This document shows, piece after piece, positions 1 through 32,321 of a DNA stretch of 64,000 bases. The notes below the pieces were generated by a model. It ran no database searches, was not told where the DNA came from, and saw nothing but the letters and a program-made list of their open reading frames with translations. Position 1 is the stretch's first letter. Each line of letters begins with the position of its first letter. The DNA comes from a virus (Duplodnaviria > Caudoviricetes). The DNA lies in IMG/VR virus record IMGVR_UViG_3300028603_000039, positions 6,076 through 70,075 of that record; one strand, 5' to 3'. Both the position numbers and the translations under genes were made by a program.

Positions 1-2
1 AC

Positions 3-3000
3 AGGCAACCGTCTACCATAGAGGTAAAGTGTTGTAGACCTAGGCTAGATGCTGATATCAATTACATAATATCTCATTTGCCCCCAAAAACCATTCTTGT
101 ATTTGGTGCAATTGCTAAAAAGGAAATGCAACGCATCTTAAAGTCTAACCCCTCCTACGAGAAAATCCCCATTGCTACATTCGACCATCCTGCATACATA
201 CTTCGCAATAGGCACTTGGAACCTCGGTATGTAGCACAGTTGCATAACCACATGAAGTCCATATTTGGTAATAGCAGTACGGTAAGTGTAGAAGAGAAAT
301 TTGTTACCTATACTGACAACCTTAAACATCAGTTTGTAGAGGATGCTTATAGTTCTAAAAACGTTGGTGTAGATATTGAAACTAATAGTTTAAATGTGTT
401 TAGTTTGTCTTTTATTATAGGAACTATAGCAGTTAGTTGTGATAAGTTTACATATTTCTTTGATTGCAGGGAAAAAGATATTAAGGAGTACGATGTATTG
501 GTTGACTTCCTGCAATCAGATAAGGTTCAGAAAGTTTTTGCGGATATACTATTTGATGTTGTTGCTTTGGCACAATATAATATAAAAGTAAGAAATTATT
601 CAGATTTGTTTCCGTTGGCCTTTATATACGATAATACATACAACGAGTATGGATTAGAGGCAATTAGTATGAGGTACATGCCAGACTTGGCTGGGTACAA
701 GTCTAAATTCAAGTCTTCTTTGGTAGAGCATGATTATTTAGGGGCTCCAACCGAAGAACTAAAGCGCTATAATGCCTACGACTCTTACATGACGCGTATG
801 TTGTACAACTACATCTACGACCGTCTGGATGTTAAAGCAAAGACTATATTTGAGAAAATTACTGTAAAGTTGTTGCCGGTACTTGTAGTGTTGAAATGTT
901 CTGGCATGAAAATAGACGCTGACTTGTTGGATCAATATACGGGTATATTCAAAGGCAGGATAGACGAACTTTCTAAATATTTTAATGATAAATATGGGGT
1001 AACCAACATAAATTCTACGCCCCAAATAAGTAAGTGGTTGTTTGAGACGCTGAAGCTTAAACCTATAAAATATAATGATCTAACTGCTACACAAAAAGCA
1101 AAGGGACAGAAGAAGGGATCTCCGTCTACGGATAAGGAGGTACTTGAGGCATACGCTAACGAGGTGCCAGATGTCAATCCGCTTTATGAGGCACGTAGGG
1201 TGACCAATGTGCTTACTTACTTTTTGCCGTCCATTAAAGAAAGTTTGGATGATAGAGACATAGTGCATCCAAACTTTAAACATTATGGTATACAAAGCTT
1301 CCGTTTAGCCTGTAAAGCACCGCCGCTTCAGGGAATTCCGCGTGATGAAACTAAGAGCGAATTTTTAAATCAGTATCCGTTACGCAGGTTGTTTGTAGCT
1401 AGGTTTAGTGACTCGTATATATTGGAGTGTGACTTCTCGCAACAGGAAGTCAGGATTGTTGCTGAATTGGCTCGTGATAAAGGCATGATGGATACATTTG
1501 CCAAGAACGAAGACATTCACAAGTTTGTTGGATCTCTGGTTTTTGAGAAGCCAATAGATCAGATAACTAAGTTTGAGCGTCAGATTGCAAAAGGTTGCGT
1601 GTTTGGTGCAATTTTTGGGGCATCGGCAAAAGAAATGAGTGTTAGGTTGCATATGCCAGAGAAGCAGGCACAGACGTATTTAAATAAATTTGTAGATGCG
1701 TTTCCGAGTGTTAGTGACTACCTCGCCCTACAACACAGGGCAGTTAAGAAGAACGGTGTAATTCATACGGTACTTGGCAGACCGCGAAAGTTTTTGATAG
1801 ATTCTAATAGCAGATCTGCTATTGCTGATGCGGAACGCGAAGCTGCGAATCACTGTTTTCATTGGGATACTCGTGTGCTTTTAGAGGGCGGTGCTTCAAA
1901 GACAATCAAGGAAATTGTAGATAAAAAGCTTTCTGTTAAAGTTGCTTCGGTGAACAGTGCTACAAATAAAATTGAATTTAAACGAGTAGTGAATTGGTTT
2001 AAGAATGAATACAAGGATCCTCGGTGGTTGCGTGTAAATGTACAAGGTAGCAATGGTAAACATGGAGCGGTGTGTACACCAGATCATAGATATTACACTT
2101 CACGTGGTGTGGTGGAGGCTAAGAATTTGAGAGTTGGTGATATGTTATATACGAATTACTTACATATTCCGTCTACCACATGTGAACAAATAATTCTTGG
2201 CAGTTTGCTTGGTGATGGTGGTATAAGCATGAGTAATGGTGTACGATTGTATATGACGCATTGTAATAAACAACGATCTTATTTAGAGTACAAGTGCAGT
2301 ATATTACAACCTTATATTGGTGGTAAAGTATCAAAAGGTGTTGCTGGTCTTAAAAGTTTTAAGCCTGGCAATATAATGTGGAATTATCGTTCGAATGTGC
2401 ATTGGAACCTTGCCGAGTATTATAATTTAAAATACCCTAATCTTGGTGTAAAGGATATAGTTAATAAAATAAGTTGGCTTGGGTTGGCTATATGGTATCA
2501 GGATGATGGGGGTTTGTGTCGTAGTAGGCACAATGTGGGGCGTAGATCTCATCACAGAGAAGGTTGGAGGCAGTTTATAAGGATTCATACAGAAAGTTTT
2601 AGTTTTGACGAGTCGATCCTGCTTGCAGAACTGCTAAATAAAAAATTTGGGTTGAAGTTGTATGTACGCAAGAGAAAATGTCACGGGGTGGTTGTTCCTG
2701 TGGTTGAAATGTATAGTAAACAACATTTAAAGGTGTTCTTTGATAATATTAAAATGCATATTCACCCTGGTTTGAAGTATAAACTGCCAACTACCTATTG
2801 TAATTCTAAATTTGATGGTGGCAGTGGTGGCAATGTTGCTAGAGTTCCGGCGTTGGTTAAGTGTGTTGGTATAACTGAGGTTTGTTATTCAAATGACAAA
2901 CGTAGGGGTTATTTAGATGCTTGTAAACACAAAACTAAATACAATATTGAGGTTGAAGATAACCACAATTATTTTGTAGGAGGAGGTGCTAAATACTTTT

Positions 3001-3320
3001 GTTTAGTTAAAAATTGCATTCAATCACTAGGTGCTGACATTTCCTTCCTATCCCTTATAAAAATACATGATAAATTGGTTGCAGATGGGGTGTTATACAA
3101 TGGTGTTTTTATTATAAATACTATACACGATTCTATACTGTTTGATGTGAGACGCCAATACTTAAAGTATGTGTGCGATGAAATAGCGCCGATTATGACA
3201 GATGTGCCAAAGATGCTAGGGTTTAAGGTTAAGTTTCCTGTGGATATAAAGGTAGGCAAGCGCTGGGGTGAGTCACTGAAATTGGAGGATATACTAAAAC
3301 AAGAGGTTGAAAGTGCCTAA
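3..3320 (+). CDS. polA: Family A DNA polymerase with N-terminal UDG-like domain, 3'-5' exonuclease and an intein; 5' end lies outside the window
   Basis: Frame is open from base 3 (RQPSTIEVKCCRPRLDADINYIISHLPPKTILVFGAIA...FDHPAYILRN, family-4 UDG-like). Exo motifs VDIET, FD, YNAYD. Pol motifs DFSQQEVR (A), RQIAKGCVFGAIFG (B), IHDS (C). Confidence 0.93.
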   Translation, partial: RQPSTIEVKCCRPRLDADINYIISHLPPKTILVFGAIAKKEMQRILKSNPSYEKIPIATFDHPAYILRNRHLEPRYVAQLHNHMKSIFGNSSTVSVEEKFVTYTDNLKHQFVEDAYSSKNVGVDIETNSLNVFSLSFIIGTIAVSCDKFTYFFDCREKDIKEYDVLVDFLQSDKVQKVFADILFDVVALAQYNIKVRNYSDLFPLAFIYDNTYNEYGLEAISMRYMPDLAGYKSKFKSSLVEHDYLGAPTEELKRYNAYDSYMTRMLYNYIYDRLDVKAKTIFEKITVKLLPVLVVLKCSGMKIDADLLDQYTGIFKGRIDELSKYFNDKYGVTNINSTPQISKWLFETLKLKPIKYNDLTATQKAKGQKKGSPSTDKEVLEAYANEVPDVNPLYEARRVTNVLTYFLPSIKESLDDRDIVHPNFKHYGIQSFRLACKAPPLQGIPRDETKSEFLNQYPLRRLFVARFSDSYILECDFSQQEVRIVAELARDKGMMDTFAKNEDIHKFVGSLVFEKPIDQITKFERQIAKGCVFGAIFGASAKEMSVRLHMPEKQAQTYLNKFVDAFPSVSDYLALQHRAVKKNGVIHTVLGRPRKFLIDSNSRSAIADAEREAANHCFHWDTRVLLEGGASKTIKEIVDKKLSVKVASVNSATNKIEFKRVVNWFKNEYKDPRWLRVNVQGSNGKHGAVCTPDHRYYTSRGVVEAKNLRVGDMLYTNYLHIPSTTCEQIILGSLLGDGGISMSNGVRLYMTHCNKQRSYLEYKCSILQPYIGGKVSKGVAGLKSFKPGNIMWNYRSNVHWNLAEYYNLKYPNLGVKDIVNKISWLGLAIWYQDDGGLCRSRHNVGRRSHHREGWRQFIRIHTESFSFDESILLAELLNKKFGLKLYVRKRKCHGVVVPVVEMYSKQHLKVFFDNIKMHIHPGLKYKLPTTYCNSKFDGGSGGNVARVPALVKCVGITEVCYSNDKRRGYLDACKHKTKYNIEVEDNHNYFVGGGAKYFCLVKNCIQSLGADISFLSLIKIHDKLVADGVLYNGVFIINTIHDSILFDVRRQYLKYVCDEIAPIMTDVPKMLGFKVKFPVDIKVGKRWGESLKLEDILKQEVESA
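1854..3014 (+). mobile_element. Intein (387 aa) with LAGLIDADG homing endonuclease inside PolA
   Basis: Interrupts AEREAANH|CIQSLGAD. Begins CFHWDTRV and ends YNIEVEDNHNYFV...LVKN before a +1 Cys. Internal GSLLGDGG and AIWYQDDG blocks. Confidence 0.92.
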
Positions 3321-3543
3321 AGCAAAGGTTCCGAGGAAGCTTAGTATTGTTAAGTTTGTTACCAAAGGGTTTGATACAGACTACATTAGGAGTCTTCCTT
3401 TTAAAGAGTCCTATGTTTATGTTTTCTTAGGAGAAATACCGAATATGCGTGGTCGTTGTATAGTTATGAACTATAAAAGTGGTTGTATATTTAGCGGGTA
3501 TCATACGAATAGTTTTGTTGAACTAACCAGGGATGAAGTTTAA
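3307..3543 (+). CDS. Small hypothetical phage protein
   Basis: Overlap-coupled ORF between polA and the purZ-like gene. Confidence 0.7.
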   Translation: MKVPKAKVPRKLSIVKFVTKGFDTDYIRSLPFKESYVYVFLGEIPNMRGRCIVMNYKSGCIFSGYHTNSFVELTRDEV

Positions 3544-3559
3544 AACAAGGAGGTGTGTT

Positions 3560-4588
3560 GTGCAGGAAGGAAAGCTTAACGTTTTAATTGGAATTTCATT
3601 TGGGTCAGAAGGTAAAGGCAATGTTGCCAATTATTTGGCTGTCAAGCATCCGGATTTGGATTTGTGTATTGCTAACAATTCTCCGAATGCTGGTCATCAA
3701 ATAAAGCGTGAAGATGGTACGGTAGAGACTATAAAGATGTTGCCTACTGCTGGTGTTATTTGTAAAGGTGCCAACATCTTGCTTGGATCTGGTTCTGTTA
3801 TAGATAAGGATAAGTTGATCGAGGAAATAAACAAATACGACGTTGCTGGCAGGCTTACTGTGTCGGCTTTTGCTCCTGTAGTAAGCGAGGAGTGTAAAGA
3901 ATATGAAAGGGAGAACTTAAAGTATATAGCATCTACGTTTCAGGGTACTGGTGCGGCTATCGGATTGAAGGCCATGCGATCGCCGTCTATTAAGTTAGTT
4001 AAGGATTACCCTGAATTGGAAAAGTGGTGTCACTATCATACACCCGATATTATACTTAATCGGGTAGGCAAAGCTGGTCATACTGCACTAGCGGAGGTTT
4101 GCCAAGGATATGGGCTGTCCGTAGATTCAGAGCACTATCCTCACGTTACGTCGCGCCCAGTTAATGTTGGTCAGGCTTTTGGGTATTTAGATGTACCCCC
4201 GTCGTTGTGTGGTGATGTAATCGGAGTGGCGCGTACCTACATAATAAGAGTAGGTAACGTGGAAGGAGGTTCATCTGGTGATACCTTCTACGATTCTAAG
4301 GAGGTATCTTGGGAAGAAGTATCTGCTAAGTTGAACAGACCGACTATTGAGTTTACGTCTGTAACTAAGCGCAAGAGAAGGGTGTTTACTTTTTCCAAGT
4401 ACTTGTTTAACCAAGCTGTTAAGCGCAACGGTGTAAATGTACTTTTCCTAACTTTTGTCGATTATTTGTTGCCCGATGAGTTGAAGGAGATGACTGATTA
4501 TGTAACGTCTGATGAGTTCAACTTTAAGGAAATTTACTTTGTACGTGGGTTCGGAGAATTTGACAAATTCGTGGAAAAGATTAGGTAA
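3560..4588 (+). CDS. purZ: Adenylosuccinate-synthetase superfamily, PurZ/PurZ0-like (candidate diaminopurine pathway enzyme)
   Basis: P-loop GSEGKG (Ser where PurA has the catalytic Asp of GDEGKG), NAGH, STFQGTGAA, QGYGLS..YPHVTSR, IRVG..SSG, TSVTKRKRRVFTFS, TFVDY. GTG start follows the AGGAGG RBS. Confidence 0.72.
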   Translation: MQEGKLNVLIGISFGSEGKGNVANYLAVKHPDLDLCIANNSPNAGHQIKREDGTVETIKMLPTAGVICKGANILLGSGSVIDKDKLIEEINKYDVAGRLTVSAFAPVVSEECKEYERENLKYIASTFQGTGAAIGLKAMRSPSIKLVKDYPELEKWCHYHTPDIILNRVGKAGHTALAEVCQGYGLSVDSEHYPHVTSRPVNVGQAFGYLDVPPSLCGDVIGVARTYIIRVGNVEGGSSGDTFYDSKEVSWEEVSAKLNRPTIEFTSVTKRKRRVFTFSKYLFNQAVKRNGVNVLFLTFVDYLLPDELKEMTDYVTSDEFNFKEIYFVRGFGEFDKFVEKIR

Positions 4589-5277
4589 TGAATCCGTGCT
4601 TTGAGACAGAGCTGGGCAAGTTGTATAATGCAGACTGTATGTCAGTATTGCCTAGTATTGATGATTCAAGTGTGGATTTGGTAGTTACTGATCCGCCGTA
4701 TAACTTCGATTGTCGTGGCAGAGGTACTGTACATACGGCTAAAGACGATTTTGCTAATAATGCAATGTCGCCAGAAGAATATGTTGCTTGGTTTAAGCAA
4801 GTAGTTGATCAGTTATATAGGGTTGTAAAAGACGGCGGTGCTGTCTACGTTTATTGCGGATGGAAATTGTACCCGCATGTATACCCGATAATTGGTAAGT
4901 TGTTTGATATAAAGAACTGTATTGTTTGGCGGAAGCAACATTTTGGGGTCGGTTATCACTTTAGGTTTCAGCATGAGTTTGTAGTATTTGCTACTAAGGG
5001 TAAACACCAACTGCGCCTACAGAAGCGGAATATATCAGATGTATGGGACATTGACAAGGAGAACAACAATCGTGTGCATCCAGCTCAAAAGCCTGTTGAG
5101 GCTATGTCACGTCCGATATTGTACTCTACTGATGTGGGCGGGTTGGTGTTAGACCCTTTTAATGGATCTGGTACAACGTCACTTGCAGCCGAACGATCTG
5201 GTCGCAAATGGATAGGCATTGAGATGGACACAGAATACTGTGATAAAACCATAGAGAGAATAATTAAGAATGTATAA
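4588..5277 (+). CDS. DNA amino-methyltransferase (N6-A/N4-C, beta class)
   Basis: DPPY motif IV, HPAQKP, DPFNGSGTT motif I. Confidence 0.9.
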   Translation: MNPCFETELGKLYNADCMSVLPSIDDSSVDLVVTDPPYNFDCRGRGTVHTAKDDFANNAMSPEEYVAWFKQVVDQLYRVVKDGGAVYVYCGWKLYPHVYPIIGKLFDIKNCIVWRKQHFGVGYHFRFQHEFVVFATKGKHQLRLQKRNISDVWDIDKENNNRVHPAQKPVEAMSRPILYSTDVGGLVLDPFNGSGTTSLAAERSGRKWIGIEMDTEYCDKTIERIIKNV

Positions 5278-5354
5278 GTTTATTGCGTGGATTATAAGGC
5301 TGAATTTGAAGCCACTAGAGTGGAAGATTAATAGTATGTTGAGGAGGATTAAAG

Positions 5355-7076
5355 ATGCAACTTAGCCAGAACGCTATACAGGTGCTTGAGAAGAGGTATT
5401 TAGCAAAAGATAGGACTGGAAAGGTAATTGAAACCCCAGAACAACTTTTTGAGAGGGTAGCACGCACTATATCGGGTGCGGAGCGCGATGAGTCTATGAG
5501 TGAGTATGAGGAGAAATTTTATAAGATTATGACTAATTTGGAGTTTTTGCCAAATACTCCTACCCTTATAAACGCTGGGCGTGCAATAGGGCAATTATCC
5601 GCATGTTTTGTACTCAACATTGATGATAGCATGGAGTCTATATTTACCACGCTTAGAGATGCTGCATTGGTTCAAAAAAGCGGCGGAGGTTGTGGGTACA
5701 GTTTTTCCAATGTTCGTCCGTCTGGCGATTTAGTTAAGAGTACTAATAAGTGTGCGGGTGGTCCAATAGCGTTTATTCGTATATTTGATAAGGCCATGGA
5801 AGCAATAGAGCAAGGCGGAGTGCGCCACGGTGCAAATCTTGGAACGTTAAGGATAGATCATCCGGATATAGTGAGTTTTATAGAGTGTAAACAAAAAGAA
5901 GGGGATATACCTAACTTTAACTTGTCTGTAGGTATTACTGATGAGTTTATGTCTGCAGTTAAGAGTGATAGGATGCACCAATTGATTAATCCTCATACTG
6001 GTGCTGTTGTTAAAGAAATTAAGGCTAAAAAGTTGTTTGATCTAATAGTTCACCATGCTTGGGCAAACGGGGAACCGGGCATTTTGTTCCTTGATGAGAT
6101 GAACCGTCACAATATGATACCAAATGTTGGTGCCATAGAGTCGACGAATCCGTGCGGAGAGTTGCCACTTTTGGCGTATGAGTCGTGCAATTTAGGATCT
6201 GTAAACCTTGGAAGATTTGTCAAAGCTGAGAAGGTGGACTACGATCGCCTTGAGTATGTAGTTAGGCTTGCAACAAGGTTTCTTGATGATGTGATAGACA
6301 TGAACAAATACCCTATATCTCAAATAGAAACAAAGACTAAAATGACTAGGAAAATTGGGTTAGGAATTATGGGATTTGCGGACATGCTTATTAAACTAAA
6401 TATACAGTATGATACTGAAGAGGCAGTACGTTATGCGTCTGATGTTATGAGAAAGATTCGGCAATGGTCTATTGATGAGTCTTCTAAGCTTGCTGAAGTG
6501 CGCGGTGTTTTCCCGGCTTGGCGCGGGAGCCGTTGGCAAACTGACGAGGGAGTTAGGTTAAGGAATGCAGGACTGACTGCTATAGCTCCTACAGGCACAT
6601 TGTCCATTATTGCTAATGCATCTAGTGGGTGTGAGCCATATTATTCGAAGACTGTAAAGAAGCATGTAATTAATACTATACTCGAAGAGGAGGTTGAGTA
6701 TGCTAAATCAGACTGCTTCATTACAGCTAAGGAAATATCGCCAGAATGGCATGTTAAGATCCAGGCGGCTCTTCAGGCGCAAACGTGTTCGGCAGTTAGT
6801 AAGACTATTAATTTTCCGAATGATGCTACTGAGGATGATATTAAGAGATCTATACTGTTAGCTTATAAATTAAAATGTAAGGGTATTGCTTTGTACCGCG
6901 ATGGATCAAGGGAAAAGCAAGTTTTGTATAGTGGAGATGCAAAGAAGGATGTTGTACCTACTAAGGAAAAGGCGATAGAAAAGTGTCCAGAGTGTGGGGC
7001 TGATGTTGTAAATGAGTCTGGGTGCGTCAAATGTTCAAATGCGGGTTGTGGCTGGTCAGCTTGCAAAATTTCGTAA
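5355..7076 (+). CDS. nrdJ: Class II (B12-dependent) ribonucleotide reductase
   Basis: LEKRYL N-terminus, PNTPTLINAG, SACFV, TNPCGE, IAPTGT, C-terminal CPECG..GC..C..CGWSAC. No NrdB partner seen. Confidence 0.88.
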   Translation: MQLSQNAIQVLEKRYLAKDRTGKVIETPEQLFERVARTISGAERDESMSEYEEKFYKIMTNLEFLPNTPTLINAGRAIGQLSACFVLNIDDSMESIFTTLRDAALVQKSGGGCGYSFSNVRPSGDLVKSTNKCAGGPIAFIRIFDKAMEAIEQGGVRHGANLGTLRIDHPDIVSFIECKQKEGDIPNFNLSVGITDEFMSAVKSDRMHQLINPHTGAVVKEIKAKKLFDLIVHHAWANGEPGILFLDEMNRHNMIPNVGAIESTNPCGELPLLAYESCNLGSVNLGRFVKAEKVDYDRLEYVVRLATRFLDDVIDMNKYPISQIETKTKMTRKIGLGIMGFADMLIKLNIQYDTEEAVRYASDVMRKIRQWSIDESSKLAEVRGVFPAWRGSRWQTDEGVRLRNAGLTAIAPTGTLSIIANASSGCEPYYSKTVKKHVINTILEEEVEYAKSDCFITAKEISPEWHVKIQAALQAQTCSAVSKTINFPNDATEDDIKRSILLAYKLKCKGIALYRDGSREKQVLYSGDAKKDVVPTKEKAIEKCPECGADVVNESGCVKCSNAGCGWSACKIS

Positions 7077-7089
7077 AGGAGATGTATCG

Positions 7090-7578
7090 ATGAGCGAACA
7101 ATTGGATGAAATATTAAACAACATCAGTTTGGCCTTTGGTATAGATAACCTAGAGGTAGTGTTTCCAGAAGATACCTTAGTTGAATTGTCTTTGTTTAGG
7201 ATATCCAAAATAGATGCTACTAGGTTAGATGAGGAGTTGGTATTTGAACCAAAGGTTTACATGTTGTTCTGTGCAATACTGGCGCACGTTTCAAATAAAT
7301 ATGAGCGCATGGAAGCTCATGTGGAGCAGTTGGATGCTAAATTATCGCTGAAGTACGAGAAGCATTTAATAAGTTCTGATGAGCGTGTTTCTGACAAGAA
7401 GATTGATAAACTGGTCAAAGCTGATGATGATTATGTAGAGGCTGTTAACAAATGCCTTGAGTATAAAAACATGGTTATTACGTTTAGGAATATACTTAAT
7501 GGCTTGGATAAGAAGCATGATGGTTTGATGCAATTATCATCAAAACGTAACAAAGAAATTTCACAGAGGATGATATGA
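7090..7578 (+). CDS. UvsY-like recombination mediator (helical)
   Basis: Helical pattern (KIDKLVKADDDY...LDKKHDGLMQLS) next to the RecA/UvsX homolog. ATG 7090 follows AAGGAG. Confidence 0.5.
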   Translation: MSEQLDEILNNISLAFGIDNLEVVFPEDTLVELSLFRISKIDATRLDEELVFEPKVYMLFCAILAHVSNKYERMEAHVEQLDAKLSLKYEKHLISSDERVSDKKIDKLVKADDDYVEAVNKCLEYKNMVITFRNILNGLDKKHDGLMQLSSKRNKEISQRMI

Positions 7579-7916
7579 ATTTATTGATGGCAGTAGTGTT
7601 TGCGCACTACATTGCTGATTGGGCTCTCCAAACGGAGTTTGTAGCTAGGAACAAGGGCAAATATGGGTATATTATGTTTAGCCACAGCATGGTGTGGACT
7701 GGAGTTATTTGCTTTGTTTTAAACTACTACAATGCTTATTCTTTATGGAAACTTGTATTTTTGTTGGTTGGTCATATGTGGATGGATCAATATAAAATGG
7801 ATAGGGTAAAAGAAGACTGTTCTGCTAGCAGGGAAACAGAAAAACACAATTTAAGACTGCTTTATATAGATCAGGCGTGGCATTTTGTGCAGTGTGTTGT
7901 TGTTAGTATATTTTAA
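7575..7916 (+). CDS. DUF3307-like membrane protein
   Basis: HYIADWALQ...K, HS, HMWMD, DQAWH His/Asp pattern in hydrophobic helices. Confidence 0.7.
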   Translation: MNLLMAVVFAHYIADWALQTEFVARNKGKYGYIMFSHSMVWTGVICFVLNYYNAYSLWKLVFLLVGHMWMDQYKMDRVKEDCSASRETEKHNLRLLYIDQAWHFVQCVVVSIF

Positions 7917-7928
7917 AGGAGATGTACA

Positions 7929-9110
7929 ATGGCTAAAAAAGAAGAGAAGGGTGTTGTAAGCAAGTTGGAATCAGTTGACATATCAAAGCTTGTTAGTGGG
8001 TTGGTTGATGAGTATAGGAAGAAGAATATGCTTATCGAAACTGGGCACATTAACTGTGAGTTTTTTGATTCTGGAAACTTGGCGCTTAATTATATTTTGT
8101 CTGGCAAGTTTGATGAGGGATTCCCTACTGGTCAAGTTATTAACGTCCATGGTGATCCTCAGACTGGGAAAAGCTTGTTAGTATGCAATGCCATAGCTAA
8201 CTTCCTAAAGAAATACCCAGATGGTGTTGCCATATTGGATGATACAGAGTTTGCCTATGTTGAATATTTAGGCAGTAATTTAGGTATTGATGAGTCAAGG
8301 TTTATAAGGTTAAATACCTCTACTGTTGAGGAGCATTCTAAGGCAGTGTTCTTTGGCGGTAAGATTAAGACAATGGACGTTGATACTGGAAAGGATGTGG
8401 AGGTAGAGGTAGAGCCTATTGTACCTAAGCTTTGGAATAAAGGATGTAAACACATCCTTATAGCAGTTGATTCTATAGCTATGTGGTCAACTGAGCATGA
8501 GCTTGCTATAGTTGGTTTAGATAAGCCTGATATGGGCAAGGCAAAAGTGTTGAGGGCTCTGCTCCGTACTATCATGCCAGAGGTAAAGAAATACGGTTTA
8601 ACATATATAATTACTAATCATTTGATATTCAACATAGGCGATATGTTTGGACCGCGCAAAATTGAAGGTGGTGGTCAGGCGCCAGCGTATCAGTCTTCTA
8701 TAAGGCTTTGTATGCAAATTGCTGGGAAAATAAAGGTTGACAGTAAGGGTAAGAGTGGGGAACTAGGGGGAGACAAGGATGATAAGAATGCCAAGATAGT
8801 TGGCGTAGTTGCTAGGGCTACCACGGTTAAAAACAGGTTTGCACCTCCATTTAGAAATTGCCTTATAGACATTAAGTTTGATGCGGGTATGTCTAGGTTT
8901 TCTGGGTTGTTGAAGCTCCTACAAGATTTGAGCATTGTATTGCTTGCGCCCGGTGGATGGTACGAAACTTGCGATAAGAAAATAAAGTTTCAATCTAAAG
9001 ACTTTGAAGCTAAGTGGCCTGAAATAAAGGCATTGATAACTCCAGATAGGGTAAAGATGCGCGAGTCGGAGTCTCCTATAATAGTTGAGGATATAAAAGA
9101 CGAGGAATAA
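7929..9110 (+). CDS. recA: RecA/UvsX-like recombinase
   Basis: DSGNLALNYILSG, Walker A GDPQTGKS, VDSIA, SSIRL, KNRFAPPF. Confidence 0.9.
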   Translation: MAKKEEKGVVSKLESVDISKLVSGLVDEYRKKNMLIETGHINCEFFDSGNLALNYILSGKFDEGFPTGQVINVHGDPQTGKSLLVCNAIANFLKKYPDGVAILDDTEFAYVEYLGSNLGIDESRFIRLNTSTVEEHSKAVFFGGKIKTMDVDTGKDVEVEVEPIVPKLWNKGCKHILIAVDSIAMWSTEHELAIVGLDKPDMGKAKVLRALLRTIMPEVKKYGLTYIITNHLIFNIGDMFGPRKIEGGGQAPAYQSSIRLCMQIAGKIKVDSKGKSGELGGDKDDKNAKIVGVVARATTVKNRFAPPFRNCLIDIKFDAGMSRFSGLLKLLQDLSIVLLAPGGWYETCDKKIKFQSKDFEAKWPEIKALITPDRVKMRESESPIIVEDIKDEE

Positions 9111-9124
9111 GAAAGGAAAACGCT

Positions 9125-10255
9125 ATGTTTAAATACTCACATCAGTCTATAAGCTTAGATGAGGTATCTGTAATACCAGAGTCGGTAACTACTATAAGTG
9201 ACGACGATGTTGATTTAACTATGTGGATAGGGGACTTAAAGCTCAAGTTGCCTATTGTAGGCGCCGCTATGGATAGCGTTATGTCGGTCAAGTCGTTATT
9301 AGAACTAGGAAGGCTTGGTGGCATCGGCATTGTTAACCTATGCGGTTTGATCTCAAGGTATCCGTTAGATAAATATAATGATATATATGCAGAACTTGCA
9401 AGTTCCCCGTCTGTGTCTACCTTACAGAAGATTTATAACTCAGAGCCGGTTAATATGGTAGTATTGCAGAGCAACTTGGCAAAATTGCAGGAGATAGTTG
9501 GGGATGTAGAATTTGCTGTATCTGCTACTCCACAACAGGCTGAAAGGTTGTTTGGCGTTGCAATGCAACAAGGCATAAGAGCTTTAGTTATCCAGTCGTC
9601 GTTTATATCACCGTACTGGTCGTCGAGTAAGGCTACTGGTCTCAATGTTGGAAAATTTATCCAATATGCGCGCCAAAACGGGTGCACGGTAATGGTTGGT
9701 AATGTGGCCAGTTTGAATGCAGCTGTACCCTTTATAGAGGCTGGTGTAGATGCTATTATTGAAGGTGTTGGACCTGGAGTCCAGTGTACCACTCGCTTTG
9801 TTTTAGGCATAGGAGCTGGACATGTTACTACGATAGACGACTTACGTGGATATATTGAAAAGCAGAAATCTAGGACAATTATTATAGCAGATGGTGGCAT
9901 ACACAATAGTGGCGACATTGTTAAATTGATGTGTTGTGGTGCTCATGCTGTTATTTTGGGCGGTATGATATCCAAAACAGTAGAGTCGCCGTTTAATGGA
10001 TATCATTGGGGCATGTCGGCCTATCACCATACTCTGCCCAGAGGCACGCTTTTGCATTATGAGGTTGAAGATGGGGCTACAATAGAAAGGTTGTTAATGG
10101 GGCCGTCCACAAGAGCCGATGGTACATTGGCGCTCATTCCAGCCATAAAGAATGCTTTATCTAATTTGGGTTGTAATAGTATAAATAATGCCTACAGAGA
10201 TACATTGGTAACGCGGTTTGCTGGCATACTAACAGAGGGTAAAGATAAAAAATGA
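9125..10255 (+). CDS. guaB: IMP dehydrogenase/GMP reductase family (GuaB3-like, no CBS domain)
   Basis: SLDEVSVIP, AAMDSV, catalytic loop GVGPGVQCTTR, IADGGI, GMSA. Confidence 0.8.
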   Translation: MFKYSHQSISLDEVSVIPESVTTISDDDVDLTMWIGDLKLKLPIVGAAMDSVMSVKSLLELGRLGGIGIVNLCGLISRYPLDKYNDIYAELASSPSVSTLQKIYNSEPVNMVVLQSNLAKLQEIVGDVEFAVSATPQQAERLFGVAMQQGIRALVIQSSFISPYWSSSKATGLNVGKFIQYARQNGCTVMVGNVASLNAAVPFIEAGVDAIIEGVGPGVQCTTRFVLGIGAGHVTTIDDLRGYIEKQKSRTIIIADGGIHNSGDIVKLMCCGAHAVILGGMISKTVESPFNGYHWGMSAYHHTLPRGTLLHYEVEDGATIERLLMGPSTRADGTLALIPAIKNALSNLGCNSINNAYRDTLVTRFAGILTEGKDKK

Positions 10256-10278
10256 TGACGAATAAGGAAGCGAAGTAG

Positions 10279-11049
10279 ATGTATGGATATATTTACAAGA
10301 CGACAAACTCGATAACTGGCAAGATTTATATAGGGCAACATAAAGGCGATTTTGATATTGACTATTTGGGTAGCGGGTTGTACTTAGAGAATGCTGTAAA
10401 GAAATATGGTAAAAATAACTTTGTCGTTATTTTGTTGGCGCAGGCTATTGATAAGAGGCTTATAAATACCTTGGAAAAATACTATATAGAAGTTTATCGT
10501 AGAGAGTTAGGTAAAAACGGGTTATATAATATAGCAGACGGTGGTGATGGCGGTTTTGTAATGTGTGGTGATATCAATCCGACTAAGAGGTTTGAAGTTA
10601 GGGAAAAATTACGAATAGCCAGTTTAGGTAAGCATCCTTCAGAAGAAACTAAAGAGAAAATACGATTGGCCGGTTTAGGTAATTGTCGTTTTAAGGGCAA
10701 ACATCATTCAGACAAAACCAAAGAGAAGGATAGGTTATCTAGTTTGGGTAAGCATCATACTAAGGAATCTAAAGAAAAACTAAGGCTGTATCGTTTGGGT
10801 AAGCATCATACTGAGGAGTCCAAAGAAAAATTGAGAGGTAACAAGAACCCATCCAAAAGACCTGAAGTTAGGGAGAAGCTTAGGTTGGTTGGTATGGGCG
10901 ATAAGAATTCAGCTAGAAGACCAGAAGTTAGAGAGAAAATGAGATTGGCTCGTTTAGGTAAACACCATTCAGAAGAAACCAAGGAAAAGATTCGATTAGC
11001 TCGTGCTAAACAAGAGGTTAGAAAGAAGGTAGTAAGTATAATCTACTGA
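10279..11049 (+). CDS. Free-standing GIY-YIG homing endonuclease with NUMOD3-type repeats
   Basis: GYIY..N....IYIGQ and repeated GKHH(S/T)EE(T/S)KEK(I/L)R. Confidence 0.88.
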   Translation: MYGYIYKTTNSITGKIYIGQHKGDFDIDYLGSGLYLENAVKKYGKNNFVVILLAQAIDKRLINTLEKYYIEVYRRELGKNGLYNIADGGDGGFVMCGDINPTKRFEVREKLRIASLGKHPSEETKEKIRLAGLGNCRFKGKHHSDKTKEKDRLSSLGKHHTKESKEKLRLYRLGKHHTEESKEKLRGNKNPSKRPEVREKLRLVGMGDKNSARRPEVREKMRLARLGKHHSEETKEKIRLARAKQEVRKKVVSIIY

Positions 11050-11054
11050 TAATC

Positions 11055-11084
11055 TTGTTGGAATATACATCGTTGTGGTATAAT
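11055..11084 (+). promoter_or_regulatory. sigma70-type promoter, extended -10
   Basis: TTGTTG-N18-TATAAT with TGTGG before the -10. Confidence 0.65.
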
Positions 11085-11109
11085 GGTTGTATAACAAGGA
11101 GATGGTGAG

Positions 11110-11406
11110 ATGGTAATGTACACATTGAAACAGTTATCCAAAGAAATCGGTGTATCAAAGGCGTGGTTTTATAAAGTTGAGCAGTGCTTTGGGTTAAGAT
11201 CGTGGGCAAGTAGGTTGTCTGGTAAGAAAAGTCAATATAATGATGAACAATTAAGGTTGTTTAGACAGGTTTATTTTTTGAGACTGTCTGGAATTGGTTA
11301 TGCCAGAATAAAGCGCATATTGGATAACGAGTTATTGCCATCAGAACGCGAAAGAGTAGAGAGGTTTTATAACTGCATGACAAGAGCGTACAACGAGGTA
11401 ATGTAG
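11110..11406 (+). CDS. MerR-like HTH protein
   Basis: YTLKQLSKEIGVS...Y...GL...R..Y.DEQLR. Confidence 0.6.
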   Translation: MVMYTLKQLSKEIGVSKAWFYKVEQCFGLRSWASRLSGKKSQYNDEQLRLFRQVYFLRLSGIGYARIKRILDNELLPSERERVERFYNCMTRAYNEVM

Positions 11407-11408
11407 AG

Positions 11409-11993
11409 ATGTCGACTAAGATACTATATGTAGATACCGAGACTACGGGTATGTCTCCTATTTACCATGGTATAGTCGAGTTGGCAATAATTGTTGAGAT
11501 TGATGGGCTTATTGCTGAGAAACACCACTTTAAGGCGCGCCCATTCGAAACAGACCGCATTAATGCTGATTCGTTGAAACTCCTCAACCTGACTATCGAT
11601 GAGATAAAATCCTATCCAGATCCTAATCAAATGTATTGGGACTTAGTAAAGGTACTTAACAAGTATGTAGATAGGTATGATAAAGATAAAACCCTTAAGT
11701 TTTTCCCGGTTGGTTACAATGTTCAGTTTGACCTTGATTTTTTGCAGGAGTTTTTTAGGAAGAATGGCGATCAGTTTATCGGATCTTATTTTAACTGGCG
11801 GAAGATGGATGTTTTACAACTTCTTTACTTGGCTCACTATAAGGGTCAGATAAACCTTGAAAGTTATAAGCTTGCAAATGTGTGTGAGTATTTTGGTATT
11901 GACCTTGAAGCGCACGATGCGATGAGCGATTTAGTTGCTACCCGCGAGTTGTTTAACAAGTTAGAACCTAAAATATTGGTTGCTGCATTATAG
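11409..11993 (+). CDS. DEDDh 3'-5' exonuclease (DnaQ-like)
   Basis: DTETTG, GYNVQFD, HDAMSD. Confidence 0.88.
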   Translation: MSTKILYVDTETTGMSPIYHGIVELAIIVEIDGLIAEKHHFKARPFETDRINADSLKLLNLTIDEIKSYPDPNQMYWDLVKVLNKYVDRYDKDKTLKFFPVGYNVQFDLDFLQEFFRKNGDQFIGSYFNWRKMDVLQLLYLAHYKGQINLESYKLANVCEYFGIDLEAHDAMSDLVATRELFNKLEPKILVAAL

Positions 11994-12002
11994 GGGGATG
12001 TT

Positions 12003-12212: not shown

Positions 12213-12526
12213 TGGAGAGGCAAAAAGTGGTGTCTTCTAACATTGGTGCAGTCGGGTATGACGGAACAAACCAGATATTAGAGGTGCAGTTTACATCTGG
12301 TAAAGTTTATCAGTATTCTGGTGTCCCTAAAGAAATTTACGAGAATATGTTGCAGGCAGAATCTAAGGGCAGGTATTTTGCATCTAATATAAGGAATACT
12401 GGTGGTAAGTACCCAGCCAAATTGGTAGTAGAAGAAGTGAAGCCAACCGAGGAGAAAAAAGAGGAGATTGTGCCAGATGTTAAGAAAGAGGAAGACAAAC
12501 CAGAAGGCGGGTGCTCCTGCTCTTAA
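12212..12526 (+). CDS. KTSC domain protein
   Basis: SSNIGAVGYD...LEVQF.SG.VYQY.GVP...Y..ML.AESKGRYF. Confidence 0.88.
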   Translation: MERQKVVSSNIGAVGYDGTNQILEVQFTSGKVYQYSGVPKEIYENMLQAESKGRYFASNIRNTGGKYPAKLVVEEVKPTEEKKEEIVPDVKKEEDKPEGGCSCS

Positions 12527-12902
12527 AGGTTTTACGGGTCTTGAAAAGGATGCTCCGATTGTAACGAATGAAAGGGGCGGGGTGTCATCTGGTACTGCGT
12601 TTGCGTACCACCTAATAGATCCAGTTGCTTTGCAGGAGTTAGCAAAGGTGATGCGATATGGGGAGCAGAAGGGGTATTTAAGGGATAATTGGCGTCTTTT
12701 GTCTATAGAGGACCACTTGAATCATACCATAATGCACATTATGGCACATCAAGCTGGTGATAAACAAGATGATCATTTGGAGCATGCTTTTACTAGGATG
12801 ATGATGGCTGTAGCCATAAAGCATCGCCCAGATTATTTGGGGTGTTTGGGTAAACAAAAAAGGCTGGTTGTATGTAAAACACATACTAACAGGAGAAAAT
12901 AA
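12468..12902 (+). CDS. dATP/dGTP diphosphohydrolase N-terminal-like domain (DUF5664-like)
   Basis: YHLIDP.AL.ELAKV.RYG..K....NW....EDHLNH...H......DDHLEHA pattern. The start may be ATG 12477. Confidence 0.65.
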   Translation: MCQMLRKRKTNQKAGAPALKGFTGLEKDAPIVTNERGGVSSGTAFAYHLIDPVALQELAKVMRYGEQKGYLRDNWRLLSIEDHLNHTIMHIMAHQAGDKQDDHLEHAFTRMMMAVAIKHRPDYLGCLGKQKRLVVCKTHTNRRK

Positions 12903-18843: not shown

Positions 18844-19063
18844 CAAGCACAACAAGGTAATTGGAGACGAGGCAAAAATTATTTTTGCTGATAGGATGGC
18901 TAAGGGTCAGTGTTCAATTTGTGGACAAGAGTTGGGTAAAGACAGAGAGCTTGTAACTGATGTTAATTATGGTGAAATATTTGTATGCGCTCACCATATA
19001 CGTAATAAACCTAAGTTAGGGGTGGATATCAAGAAGGAGGACGTTGCAGTTAATGAAACTTAA
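18836..19063 (+). CDS. Small hypothetical protein (CxxC...CxxH)
   Basis: Coupled ORF. Confidence 0.55.
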   Translation: MADKHNKVIGDEAKIIFADRMAKGQCSICGQELGKDRELVTDVNYGEIFVCAHHIRNKPKLGVDIKKEDVAVNET

Positions 19064-19472
19064 AAACCTTTGTAAGGTATCTTACAACCAAGCTTTGTCA
19101 AAGGGGTTCCACGATGATTCGCTGAAAATCCCAAAAAAGATGCGCAGATTGGGGTTTTCTGCAAGCGAAGTTAGGGCAGTAGAAGTGGCCTTTACAAACC
19201 AAGCCGTGCTGTTAAGCATTACTGAGTTGGCAGAATCTTGTGAAGCTTTAAGGCACAATCGCGTTCAATCTAACGCCGTTTATGGGTACAAGCATGGGCG
19301 CAAGAAGCCCCGTGTAGGTTGGTGCAAGGATACATTTGAGGATGAAATAGCTGATACCTTTATCCGTTTGGCTGATATGTGCGATGGTATGGGCATTGAT
19401 ATAGAATGGCAACTTAAGAAGAAACTGGCATATAATAAGTTAAGACCGCGTTTACATGGTAAGAAATTTTAG
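19053..19472 (+). CDS. MazG-like NTP pyrophosphohydrolase
   Basis: LSITELAESCEALR...EDEIAD..IRLAD...KLAYN..RP.LHGK. Confidence 0.85.
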   Translation: MKLKNLCKVSYNQALSKGFHDDSLKIPKKMRRLGFSASEVRAVEVAFTNQAVLLSITELAESCEALRHNRVQSNAVYGYKHGRKKPRVGWCKDTFEDEIADTFIRLADMCDGMGIDIEWQLKKKLAYNKLRPRLHGKKF

Positions 19473-27884: not shown

Positions 27885-28195
27885 AACACACGCATTGCCA
27901 AACATTTGTAATAGATGGCGAGGACATTACCAAGTTTGCAAGGAAACATTGTAAAAAGGGCTGGGCGTATGCTTTTGTAAAGTACCCGGACGGCAAGATA
28001 ATCCTAAGCGAAGTTTTTCTTGTAGATGGTGTAGGTGGGTATTGCCCTGCCAGCAGTGATGTTGTAGATAAAAAAGAGTTTGAAAGAAACAAACGCAGGG
28101 ACCCAGACTTTTACGAGTCTGATACTTGGGAGATGTATAGGAGTAGGATATTTAGGGATCTATTGTTTCCAATAAAAATGGACTGCGATAAATGA
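27881..28195 (+). CDS. Hypothetical protein
   Basis: ATGA overlap, GGGAG RBS. Confidence 0.6.
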   Translation: MKHTHCQTFVIDGEDITKFARKHCKKGWAYAFVKYPDGKIILSEVFLVDGVGGYCPASSDVVDKKEFERNKRRDPDFYESDTWEMYRSRIFRDLLFPIKMDCDK

Positions 28196-28830
28196 AGATA
28201 ATATTAGAGGGCGTAGTTGGGTCACAGGCGTACGGTTTGGCAACTGAGCACAGCGATGTTGACAGATTGGGTGTGTTTGTGTCTCCAACCAAAGATATAC
28301 TAAGTCTAACTAAGCCTAAGGATAGCATAGTTACAACCAAACCAGATGTTTCCCGTCACGAGGTTGAGAAGTTTTTGAAATTGGCTATGCAGGGCAACCC
28401 ATCTGTGTTGGAGTTGTTGTTTCTTGATAACTATACTACTATCTTGTATGAGGGTTTAATTTTGGTTACCAATAAGCAAGCCTTTTTAAGTAATATGGTA
28501 TTTAAATCCTATGGAGAGTATGCCCGTAACCAAGCTCAACCGATGTTTTATGGGGCATTACGTAATATAAAATGGGCATCAGATAAACAAGTAAGGCATT
28601 GTTTCCGATTACTTCGCCAAGGCAAACAATTGTTGGAAACTGGTGCCTTGTCTGTTAAAGTTGATAATAGAGAGGAACTGTTAGGTTTGAGCAAGATGAC
28701 GTCCAAAGCATTGGCTAAAAAGTTTACTAAGGAATATGCAGAATTTTATAAGACAAAGAGTGTATTGCCTGATAAGCCAAATGTTAAGCTTATAAATAAT
28801 ATCCTGTTGAGTATAAGGGGAGTAAATTGA
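28192..28830 (+). CDS. Pol-beta superfamily nucleotidyltransferase (RlaP/YcgL-like)
   Basis: GSQAYGLAT..SDVD..GVF, EVEKFL.LA..GNP.VLE.L. Confidence 0.8.
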   Translation: MKIILEGVVGSQAYGLATEHSDVDRLGVFVSPTKDILSLTKPKDSIVTTKPDVSRHEVEKFLKLAMQGNPSVLELLFLDNYTTILYEGLILVTNKQAFLSNMVFKSYGEYARNQAQPMFYGALRNIKWASDKQVRHCFRLLRQGKQLLETGALSVKVDNREELLGLSKMTSKALAKKFTKEYAEFYKTKSVLPDKPNVKLINNILLSIRGVN

Positions 28831-28945
28831 TGGGTGAAATTAAGTACATAATTGATCCATTTTGGGTAATGTTTGGCGTTCCAGCCCTTATCTTCTTATG
28901 GATAGTACATAGAATTTCTATTAGACCTGATAGAAGGGCGGACAA

Positions 28946-29482
28946 ATGAGTACGTTCTTTACTGCAGATACACACTTTAACCATGCTAATATTATTAAGT
29001 ATTGTAACCGCCCGTTTAAAGATGTAACGGAGATGAATGAGGTTATGATTAAAAATTGGAACGCTGTAGTTAAGTCAAATGATTCAGTTTATCATATAGG
29101 TGACTTTGCTTTTGGTGATTGTAAGTCTATTTTGGATAGGTTAAACGGGAAAATAACAATGATAGTGGGCAGCCACGATCGAGATGTATGGGCGTGTAAG
29201 TGGCGCTTTCAAGATATTGGGAAGTTAATTGAGATTAGGATTGATAGCCAACTAATAGTGTTGTGTCATTATGCCATGCGTGTGTGGTCTGCGTCACATT
29301 ATAATACATGGCATTTATTTGGACATTCTCACGGTCAGTTGGAACCGTTTGGCAAATCCTTTGATGTTGGTGTAGATACTAATGACTTTAAGCCGTACTC
29401 GTTTGAGGAAGTATGTAAAAAGATGGCAACGTTGTCAGATAACTTTAACTTGGTAAAGGGGGCGCGGTGTATAACAAAGTAA
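28946..29482 (+). CDS. Calcineurin-like metallophosphoesterase
   Basis: ADTHFNH, HIGDF, GSHD, GHSH. Confidence 0.88.
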   Translation: MSTFFTADTHFNHANIIKYCNRPFKDVTEMNEVMIKNWNAVVKSNDSVYHIGDFAFGDCKSILDRLNGKITMIVGSHDRDVWACKWRFQDIGKLIEIRIDSQLIVLCHYAMRVWSASHYNTWHLFGHSHGQLEPFGKSFDVGVDTNDFKPYSFEEVCKKMATLSDNFNLVKGARCITK

Positions 29483-30471
29483 GGGCTATAGTTGATCCAG
29501 TTTATCTTGTTGGTGGGTGTGTTCGGGATAAGTTGCTCGGGCTCACACCCAAGGACTACGACTTTGCCACGCCCCTCACCCCGGACGAAATAGAGGCAGC
29601 CATAAGGAAGGCTGGTAGGCGCCCTTATTTGGTTGGTAAAAGGTTTGGTACTATAGGGGTCAAGATAGACGGTGTAATGGTTGAGATAACTACCTTTAGG
29701 TCTGAACAATATGACCCAGATAACCGCAAGCCAAGGGTAGCGTTTGTTAAGGATATAACTGCCGACTTGAGCCGGCGCGATTTTACCATAAATGCTATAG
29801 CCAAGCGCGGGAGTAGAATAATAGATCCATTTGAGGGACACCTTGATTTGGAGGATAAAATAATAAGGTGCGTTGGCGAGCCCAAACACAGGTTTGACGA
29901 GGACCCGTTGCGTATGCTCAGAGCTGGACGGTTTGCCTCTCAGTTAGGGTTCGTTGTAGATGAACCTACAAAGAGAGCAACGCTTAATATGTCTTATAAA
30001 ATACTACACGTGAGCAAGGAACGTTGGATGATGGAATTAGATAAGCTTCTGGTGTGTGCAAACCCATCAGTTGGCTTAAACTTCTTGATGCATACTAGGT
30101 TGATGAATTATATGATACCAGAGTTGGCGTTGCAATTTCATTTTGACCAAGACAGCCCGTACCACGATTTGACTCTTTGGGATCATACTTTGCTAGTTGT
30201 CGATGCTTGCCCTGCAGATGTAAACTTAAGGTGGGCTGCATTAGTACACGATATAGCTAAGCCTTTTGTTAAGGCAAGGAATGACAAAGGGTACAGCAAC
30301 TACATACGCCATGACTATTTAGGGTATGACATGGTTAAGCGACTTGGTACGCATCTTAAGTGGTCAAAAGATAGGTTAAAGGTTGTAAGCGAATTGGTGC
30401 GCGATCACCTATTAGAGAGTAACCCTTTAAAGCCGTACGACGATGCGGCTAAAAGGCACATTGCAATATAA
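29467..30471 (+). CDS. cca: CCA-adding/poly(A) polymerase-family tRNA nucleotidyltransferase with HD domain
   Basis: LVGGCVRD, DYDFAT, RRDFTINAIA, EDPLRMLRA.RF, HDIAKP. Confidence 0.88.
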   Translation: MYNKVRAIVDPVYLVGGCVRDKLLGLTPKDYDFATPLTPDEIEAAIRKAGRRPYLVGKRFGTIGVKIDGVMVEITTFRSEQYDPDNRKPRVAFVKDITADLSRRDFTINAIAKRGSRIIDPFEGHLDLEDKIIRCVGEPKHRFDEDPLRMLRAGRFASQLGFVVDEPTKRATLNMSYKILHVSKERWMMELDKLLVCANPSVGLNFLMHTRLMNYMIPELALQFHFDQDSPYHDLTLWDHTLLVVDACPADVNLRWAALVHDIAKPFVKARNDKGYSNYIRHDYLGYDMVKRLGTHLKWSKDRLKVVSELVRDHLLESNPLKPYDDAAKRHIAI

Positions 30472-30484
30472 CCTATTAGAAGTA

Positions 30485-30513
30485 TTGACGTACTAGGCTG
30501 TGTGTGGTATAAT
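30485..30513 (+). promoter_or_regulatory. sigma70-type promoter
   Basis: TTGACG-N17-TATAAT with TGTGG. Confidence 0.8.
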
Positions 30514-30540
30514 GAACGTTAACATTACAAAGAGGAGAAA

Positions 30541-31997: not shown

Positions 31998-32007
31998 GGA
32001 GGGTACT

Positions 32008-32284: not shown

Positions 32285-32291
32285 TAAATAC

Positions 32292-32321
32292 TTGACAAAC
32301 CTAGGTTTTATGTGGTATAAT
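32292..32321 (+). promoter_or_regulatory. sigma70-type promoter heading the radical SAM operon
   Basis: TTGACA-N18-TATAAT with TGTGG. Confidence 0.85.

Follow-up and report, generated by a model that had tools for sequence, protein, structure and literature searches.

Does a phage that encodes a homologue of PurZ, the N6-succino-2-amino-2'-deoxyadenylate synthase, build its genome with 2-aminoadenine (Z), and if so with which helper enzymes and which phosphate donor? The question is raised by a purZ-type gene on a linear viral contig from IMG/VR (IMGVR_UViG_3300028603_000039, 70,075 bp), which we studied in a window of 64,000 nucleotides (contig 6076-70075; coordinates below are those of the window unless stated otherwise). 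Taken together, the motifs, structural matches, predicted fold and trees described here place the product, as judged from its sequence, in a distinct PurZ clade that is known from metagenomes only and is nested within the PurZ crown. We consider it rather probable that 2-aminoadenine replaces part or all of the adenine in the phage DNA, by enzymatic steps and with a phosphate donor that we infer from the genes.

Family membership and phylogenetic position

The product matches the Pfam family Adenylsucc_synt (PF00709, 1.5e-33) and the PHROGs family phrog_1211 (7.4e-49), and its top NCBIfam model is PurZ NF038379 with 182.1 bits (curated cut-off 300); the model of short archaeal PurA follows with 151 bits and TIGR00184 with 114 bits. 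Among solved structures it is closest by sequence to the two crystallised PurZ enzymes, those of S-2L (PDB 7odx, E 2.7e-38) and phiVC8 (E 3.9e-34), with weaker matches to the PurA of P. horikoshii (E 1e-21) and to PurZ0 (7vf6, E 5.6e-16); its likeness to solved PurZ enzymes is far above chance. An AlphaFold (AF2) model computed from 26 clade sequences (pLDDT 87, pTM 0.89) ranks these relatives by fold in the same order, with template modelling (TM) scores of 0.83 for both 7ODX and the phiVC8 structure 6FKO, 0.78 for P. horikoshii PurA and 0.75 for 7vf6.

We found that the residues which set PurZ apart from PurA are present (numbered here in the 351-aa frame from ATG 3533; subtract 9 for the GTG start discussed below). 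A preliminary description of this DNA, made from the sequence alone, had pointed to GSEGKG in place of GDEGKG and to IRVG..SSG and TVTK..RR..TFS-like blocks, and the translation bears this out: it contains GSEGKG with Ser25 encoded by TCA at 3605-3607, SPNAGH, IRVG..SSG with an insertion after IRVG, the third block in the form TSVTKRKRRVFTFS, and LTFVDYL. Ser occupies this P-loop position in all 267 retrieved homologues in which the P-loop is visible, whereas the 12 short archaeal and four long PurA that we compared have Asp, and the query thus lacks the canonical GDEGKG of PurA. Conservation of Asp13 in PurA is 99%, and all 147 phage PurZ have Ser in its place (PMC12884076); when Asp is restored at Ser14 of phiVC8 PurZ the substrate selectivity is abolished (bioRxiv 10.1101/2025.10.22.683976). 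The S23 and T273 of S-2L PurZ are PurZ-specific substrate contacts (PMC8342488), and their equivalents are kept in the clade as Ser25 and Thr275, the latter position being Thr in 13/13 clade rows and Gly in 10/10 PurA rows. Moreover, the loop after the Val of IRVG reads NVEGGSSGDTFYDS in the alignment, compared with a short AGPF-PTE in PurA. In S-2L PurZ the loop insertion A242-W250 excludes the 2'-OH (PMC8342488), and by alignment the clade has an insertion of this PurZ type that would crowd the 2'-OH in the same way. Ser25, Thr275, Phe308, Asp310 and Tyr311 are invariant among the 26 clade members, and the crown signature RRVFTFS is kept.

Protein searches delimit the query clade as approximately 47 metagenomic proteins of ~340 aa with 51-81% identity, followed by a gap down to ~42%. 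Proteins of cultured phages reach at most 35% identity to the query, and no prokaryotic protein exceeds 37% among the best 80 of 305 matches in 185,579 genomes. Two IQ-TREE trees (posterior mean site frequency (PMSF) model, quick search; 112 and 79 rows), on which our conclusions rest together with an approximately unbiased (AU) test, included five PurZ of known Z-phages, four PurZ0, 12 short archaeal PurA (all over the NF003295 cut-off and all with GDEGKG), four long PurA, Ser-type genes of archaeal and bacterial metagenome-assembled genomes (MAGs), viral-contig homologues and the query clade. The short archaeal PurA are sister to all Ser-type enzymes (Shimodaira-Hasegawa-like approximate likelihood ratio test (SH-aLRT) 99), and PurZ0 forms a separate clade outside the crown (SH-aLRT 100). 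The crown itself (SH-aLRT 100 in the 112-row tree and 99 in the 79-row tree) holds the PurZ of S-2L and phiVC8 together with the query clade (SH-aLRT 100, on a long stem of 0.75-0.92), apart from PurA. In the first tree the crown also took in Asp-type rows from the phages Sebata and RHph_TM61; we judged this a long-branch artefact and removed them.

These trees also bear on the name given to the enzyme. The preliminary description had called it PurZ0-like, and as a statement of kinship this is wrong, because the query clade is nested in the crown in both trees and the AU test rejects its union with PurZ0 (51.8 log-likelihood units worse, p-AU 0.016). That the clade is a member or sister of the GTP-using PurZ0 branch of actinobacteriophages is therefore very improbable, although it does share with PurZ0 the P-loop Ser, the guanine-reading Asp310 with a preceding Thr/Ser (Thr307, as also in PurA), and a DUF5664 gene in the same genome, as in the PurZ0 phage Wayne. 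The PurZ0 structure is the weakest PurZ-type match by sequence and by fold, and at positions 285, 288, 308 and 311 the clade has PurZ states rather than the Gly, Asp, Met and Gln of PurZ0 (Table 1). Further, PurZ0 phages carry DutZ and DmtZ, neither of which we found in the contig or its four searched relatives (see below).

The PurZ of S-2L (7ODX) and phiVC8 (6FKO/6FM1) share with the query the PurA fold, the Ser and Thr substitutions, the loop insertion, RRVFTFS, the donor-site Phe and Tyr and the crown itself, but at an identity of only 30-35%. The short PurA of P. horikoshii (PDB 5K7X; NF003295) has the same compact ~340-aa fold and the GTP-type Asp of T-x-x-D, but differs in its catalytic Asp, Gly at 275, RRxGxWD and IMP as substrate. 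PurA-like genes of the Ser type in MAGs (L024, L026, L031, L051 and others) have the Ser P-loop and (T/M)FxDY, but fall outside the crown and read RRVFEQ(N/S) or RRVARFD instead of RRVFTFS.

The same features argue against a reading in which the enzyme makes no Z-DNA and is instead an auxiliary purine enzyme, either an adenylosuccinate synthetase using IMP and GTP or a producer of 2-aminoadenine ribonucleotides, that rebalances host pools together with a GuaB3-like protein and a ribonucleotide reductase (RNR). The guanine-reading Asp, the linkage of the GuaB3-like and RNR genes to purZ in five contigs, and our failure to find DatZ or DpoZ would fit such a role, and large phages such as mycobacteriophage Sebata and Rhizobium phage RHph_TM61 do carry PurA-like genes of the Asp type. 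However, the Ser that replaces Asp13 throughout phage PurZ, the loss of selectivity in phiVC8 PurZ when the Asp is restored, the loop insertion crowding the 2'-OH and the nesting of the clade among enzymes of proven Z-phages all speak for a PurZ, and we regard the auxiliary role as improbable. The assignment to the PurZ family made in the preliminary description accordingly stands.

The open frame of the gene runs from ATG 3533 to 4588 on the + strand. The true start is likely GTG 3560, giving a product of 342 aa, since AAGGAGGTG lies just ahead of it at 3547-3555, the upstream open reading frame (ORF), whose stop codon is 3541-3543, is then not overlapped, and the N-termini of homologues (M-Q-x-G-K) coincide with it. 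Given this start, the limits 3560-4588 assigned to the gene beforehand are exact.

The phosphate-donor site

Within the segment TFVDY, Asp310 (codon 4460-4462) aligns with Asp333 of E. coli-type PurA (TKLD) and with the Asp of the PurZ0 motif (S/T)MxDQ, so that the guanine-reading Asp is indeed kept, as had been proposed; its counterparts are Gln308 in S-2L and Asn297 in phiVC8. Previous studies have noted that Gln308 of S-2L PurZ touches the donor nucleotide (PMC8342488) and that Phe295 and Tyr298 of phiVC8 PurZ stack on the adenine (bioRxiv 10.1101/2025.10.22.683976). The query does not have the ATP-type donor site NFx(N/Q)Y of these two enzymes, since Phe308 and Tyr311 are kept while Thr307 stands in for Asn and Asp310 for Asn/Gln. 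By alignment T-F-x-D-Y is a mosaic, with the Phe and Tyr of ATP-using PurZ and the Thr and Asp of PurA and PurZ0.

Table 1. Residues at selected positions of the query clade and its relatives (351-aa numbering)
Position	Query clade	PurZ	PurZ0	PurA
25	Ser	Ser	Ser	Asp
275	Thr	Thr	Thr	Gly
285	Phe	Phe	Gly	Gly
288	Ser	Ser	Asp	Asp
307	Thr/Ser	Asn	Thr/Ser	Thr
308	Phe	Phe	Met	Lys/Gly
310	Asp	Asn/Gln	Asp	Asp
311	Tyr	Tyr	Gln	varied

Because this motif keeps the Asp of PurA and PurZ0, we predict that the enzyme takes its phosphate from GTP (or dGTP) rather than from ATP or dATP; a point against this prediction is that the adenine-stacking pair Phe308 and Tyr311 is also kept, which would be compatible with ATP use. 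T-F-x-D-Y occurs as well in Ser-type groups outside the crown (archaeal and bacterial MAGs), and in our crown sample the donor position is Asp in 21 rows, Asn in 21 and Gln in 6; on the tree it has changed a minimum of nine times. With the stacking residues of PurZ and the Asp of PurA in one site, the clade offers a natural test of a switch from GTP to ATP as donor. PurZ0 itself reportedly uses GTP. One paper gives ATP as the preference of PurZ0 and GTP as that of PurZ (PMC12884076), and the wording of another implies GTP for PurZ0 (bioRxiv 10.1101/2025.10.22.683976), the reverse of that order.

Helper enzymes, polymerase and the extent of the probable substitution

In the pathway that we propose, class II RNR and the host would supply dGTP, which the product of a DUF5664 gene (12477-12902) would convert to dGMP while also draining dATP to dAMP. 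PurZ would then join dGMP and aspartate into dSMP (N6-succino-2-amino-2'-deoxyadenylate), host PurB and host kinases would carry dSMP on to dZTP, and the phage UDG-exo-PolA would insert Z opposite T. A Z-genome is a reasonable inference here, helped by the conservation of the DUF5664 gene, a homologue of dATP/dGTP diphosphohydrolases (Pfam dGTP_diPhyd_N). Its PF18909 match (12588-12821) is over the cut-off with 50.7 bits and E 9.1e-15, and it also matches phrog_801, 'dATP/dGTP pyrophosphohydrolase' (2.4e-12). PF18909 is found over its cut-off in 5/5 records with this purZ clade and in 0/14 control genomes. The gene lies directly after purZ or within 1 kb of it in G003, L214 and L221, which have unrelated phage backgrounds, and a few kb downstream in the present contig (G000), G001, G002, G004 and L216. 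The DUF5664 enzyme of Wayne converts dATP, dGTP and dUTP to dNMPs with a tenfold preference for dATP (PMC12884076), and therefore a single such enzyme could both feed PurZ and lower dATP. Additional support comes from metagenomic contigs physically enriched for dZ, in which PF18909 is directly linked to the PurZ domain and with which UDG domains are also associated (bioRxiv 10.1101/2025.10.22.683976).

We searched for the other known helpers in the contig and in four relatives, G001-G004, among them G001 (IMGVR_UViG_3300035208_003134, 97,890 bp, rated 100% complete) and G003 (102,811 bp), which we take to be a complete genome because of its 115-bp terminal repeat. The Pfam controls, proteins of S-2L, phiVC8 and BUCT555, were positive, with DatZ recovered by PF12917, PF13023 and PF01966 and MazZ by PF04447, PF12643 and PF03819. 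A phmmer search of six-frame ORFs with helper proteins of S-2L, phiVC8, BUCT555, Bm1 and Archimedes returned only noise, save for a MazG-like gene (19044-19472) that was the weak best match of three MazZ queries.

Several of the results weigh against a Z-genome or against the pathway as drawn. Besides the NF038379 score below its cut-off, neither DatZ (PF12917, PF13023) nor MazZ/DUF550 (PF04447) nor DutZ (PF00692, dUTPase-type) nor DmtZ (PF05014, NDT-type) was found in the contig or G001-G004, and PF03819 was not found in the contig, the only record searched with it; exclusion of dATP would hence depend on DUF5664 alone. No DUF5664 gene was found within 10 kb of purZ in the clade contigs L219 and L220, and the family is no Z-specific marker, because cyanopodoviruses without annotated PurA or PurZ (e.g. 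A-4L) have homologues. The polymerase has 21% identity to phiVC8 DpoZ, and its nearest phage relatives are other UDG-PolAs (27% or less). Finally, the phage has three DNA methyltransferases, of which at least two are of adenine type by motif (DPPY, DPPW), and their presence makes more sense if the DNA retains adenine.

Three proteins were considered as stand-ins for the helpers and rejected. The contig has just two HD proteins, a CCA/poly(A) polymerase that carries an HD domain (29467-30471) and a stand-alone RelA/SpoT-type HD_4 hydrolase of 135 aa (35165-35572), and neither was accepted in the role of DatZ; the latter, possibly a small alarmone hydrolase, has no homologue in G001 or G003. The MazG-like gene was likewise rejected as a conserved MazZ, with no homologue in G001 or G003, and a second source of dGMP is a possible role for it.

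With regard to the polymerase, the preliminary description had noted that Z-phages pair purZ with a family-A polymerase and that polA lies two genes upstream here. The arrangement is as described, with one 78-codon ORF between the two genes, and a PolA does adjoin PurZ, but the pairing does not extend to a Z-specific enzyme: by its domains the polymerase is a UDG-PolA, a group described previously (PMC10201439), and not a recognised DpoZ of the phiVC8-like or Wayne-like cluster. The genomes of the clade differ from S-2L and phiVC8 in having UDG-PolA instead of DpoZ or PrimPol, in having neither DatZ nor MazZ/DUF550 beside purZ, and in their size of ~100-180 kb, compared with ~40 kb.

Much of this would also fit a true PurZ that brings about only a partial replacement of A by Z, with dAMP re-phosphorylated by host kinases and the residual adenines protected by the N6-adenine methyltransferases of the phage. 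Apart from the missing helpers and the UDG-PolA, this reading would account for the adenine-type methyltransferases, which adjoin purZ also in L214, L216 and L218, and it agrees with the observation that E. coli given purZ, mazZ and datZ alone reaches only 9-28% dZ (PMC12944874). However, substitution is complete in all natural Z-phages examined so far (PMC13128860), the methyltransferases could act on Z, cytosine or host DNA, and with a contig only ~39% complete a dATPase could sit in the unseen part, although the complete relative G003 is also without one. We regard partial replacement as unlikely, though deserving of real weight, and the suggestion of the preliminary description that Z may partly replace A is fairly worded.

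Counts of restriction sites were included in this comparison. GGCC is strongly avoided in the contig (31 vs 142 expected, z -16.8), and CATG (142 vs 242 expected) and GATC (183 vs 250 expected) are under-represented, the latter two being points in favour of partial replacement. As a proxy for Z, site avoidance does not discriminate and was dropped: dZ-DNA stays cleavable by many enzymes with one or two Z in the site (PMC12944874), and because of this sensitivity the counts are uninformative on Z. As a separate observation, G001 shows an extreme purge of 4-base palindromes, with CATG, GATC, CTAG and TCGA all at 0 (302, 210, 203 and 170 expected, respectively) and GGCC at 74 vs 314 expected.

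Returning to a Z-genome made by the proposed pathway, the evidence could be read further as a third natural layout for Z-DNA, in which a GTP-using crown PurZ, a DUF5664 enzyme doing the work of DatZ and MazZ, and a UDG-PolA operate in phages of 100-180 kb, with a substitution that is perhaps incomplete or with Z or A methylated at N6. We put this forward tentatively, as a possibility; under it the clade PurZ may be a stage in evolution between enzymes of the archaeal/PurZ0 type and the PurZ that use ATP. It is already known that PurZ homologues are widely predicted in uncultured viruses, more than 2000 viruses having been predicted as Z-genomic on this basis (PMC13128860), and what is new here is the clade, its predicted GTP-type donor site and the reduced helper set. 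Z-genomes have so far been demonstrated in a few small phages of ~40-70 kb. If our reading is true, the Z pathway reaches phages that are far larger and replicate with another module, its helper set is reducible to one DUF5664 enzyme, and the resulting two-gene module would offer a compact means of producing dZ-DNA in cells. Should the DNA prove to be substituted only in part, this phage would provide the first natural case of a hybrid A/Z genome.

Gene neighbourhood and wider occurrence

Around purZ lies a module of replication and nucleotide genes (Table 2) that runs from a gp32-like single-strand binding protein (SSB), a Toprim primase, an SNF2 helicase and a DnaB helicase through UDG-exo-PolA and the 78-codon ORF to purZ, continues with the DPPY methyltransferase, class II RNR, a UvsY-like protein, RecA/UvsX and the GuaB3-like protein, and ends with a homing endonuclease, an exonuclease, DUF5664, a fused SbcCD, the MazG-like pyrophosphatase, GroES and GroEL. 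This order, with PolA and purZ syntenic, is common to G001, G002, G004, L216, L218 and L219. In G003, L214, L220 and L221 purZ stands in other contexts, and it therefore moves between phage lineages.

Table 2. Genes of the window referred to in the text
Feature	Position	Strand	Basis
UDG-exo-PolA DNA polymerase, 3' part	1-3320	+	UDG, DNA_pol_A_exo1, DNA_pol_A, Intein_splicing, LAGLIDADG_2 (Pfam)
78-codon ORF between polA and purZ	3307-3543	+	no family match
purZ-type gene (N6-succino-2-amino-2'-deoxyadenylate synthase homologue)	3560-4588	+	PF00709, 7odx, NF038379, phrog_1211, AF2 model, trees
N6-adenine-type DNA methyltransferase, DPPY motif	4588-5277	+	PF01555 5.9e-43; NCBIfam adenine-specific/CcrM-like
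Class II (B12-dependent) ribonucleotide reductase	5355-7076	+	Pfam; TIGR02504 NrdJ_Z 642 bits, over cut-off
GuaB3-like IMPDH/GMP-reductase family protein	9125-10255	+	PF00478 6.1e-35; TIGR01304 231 bits, below cut-off
DUF5664 (Pfam dGTP_diPhyd_N) dATP/dGTP diphosphohydrolase homologue	12477-12902	+	PF18909, phrog_801
MazG-like NTP pyrophosphatase	19044-19472	+	phrog_9236 4.7e-19, phrog_3301 1.7e-17
MT-A70 DNA methyltransferase, DPPW motif	39075-39674		motif
DNA methyltransferase, phrog_67 type	46218-46910		phrog_67

The start codon of the DPPY methyltransferase overlaps the purZ stop, and there is no orthologue at that place in G001 or G002; we regard it as a neighbour of purZ with at most a hypothetical part in the Z pathway. 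Class II RNR follows purZ also in G001, G002, L216, L218 and L219. The GuaB3-like protein keeps the catalytic-loop Cys (GPGVQCTTR) and is conserved in G001, L102, L104 and L219, and it may shift purine flux. The whole polA gene is contig 5799-9395, starting 276 bases ahead of the window, and its polymerase domain holds a LAGLIDADG intein at approximately 1878-2978. No PolA intein is present in G001 or L219; in L216 both PolA and RNR contain one.

The contig has a GC content of 39.9% with nearly all genes on the + strand, and no near-identity DNA match for window 1-12000 was found among 50,697 phage records. The preliminary description had spoken of a jumbo-type, tubulin-encoding phage. A tubulin/FtsZ-like gene is indeed present (62564-63670), with no homologue in the relatives G001 or G003. 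The jumbo status is unproven, because the 70,075-bp contig has a CheckV completeness estimate of 39% and the relatives that carry this purZ are 98-103 kb in length; in the literature searched we found no link of PurZ to jumbo phages or tubulin.

Truly huge phages also have PurZ homologues, which belong to other crown lineages, since Ser-type PurZ-like genes with 34-39% identity to the query stand on IMG/VR contigs of 197-436 kb (L113, L119, L124, L127, L129, L130, L133 and L177). In many PurZ-like proteins of ~535 aa the enzyme is joined in one chain to a nucleotide kinase domain of AAA type (PF13671, PF13238, PF13207). The cultured Flavobacterium phage MaF61 (167,814 bp; L015) has at 3995-5338, between scaffold and terminase genes, a Ser-type PurZ-like gene annotated as 'putative adenosuccinate synthetase', with GSSGKG, NFVNY and a large insertion after IRI. 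In Sebata (L017, 907-2235) and similar Bixzunavirus genomes a protein named '2-aminooxy adenylosuccinate synthetase' in RefSeq has an Asp P-loop (GDAGKG) and the motif T-H-L-D, and because of these the PurZ-type name looks misapplied.

ARAGORN found no tRNA genes in the window. Elsewhere in it, the region 28192-38231 holds a set of genes for RNA repair and NAD, which encode an RlaP-like nucleotidyltransferase, the CCA/poly(A) polymerase with HD domain, a nicotinate phosphoribosyltransferase-like protein, an isochorismatase-family protein that is a possible nicotinamidase, and an RtcB ligase.

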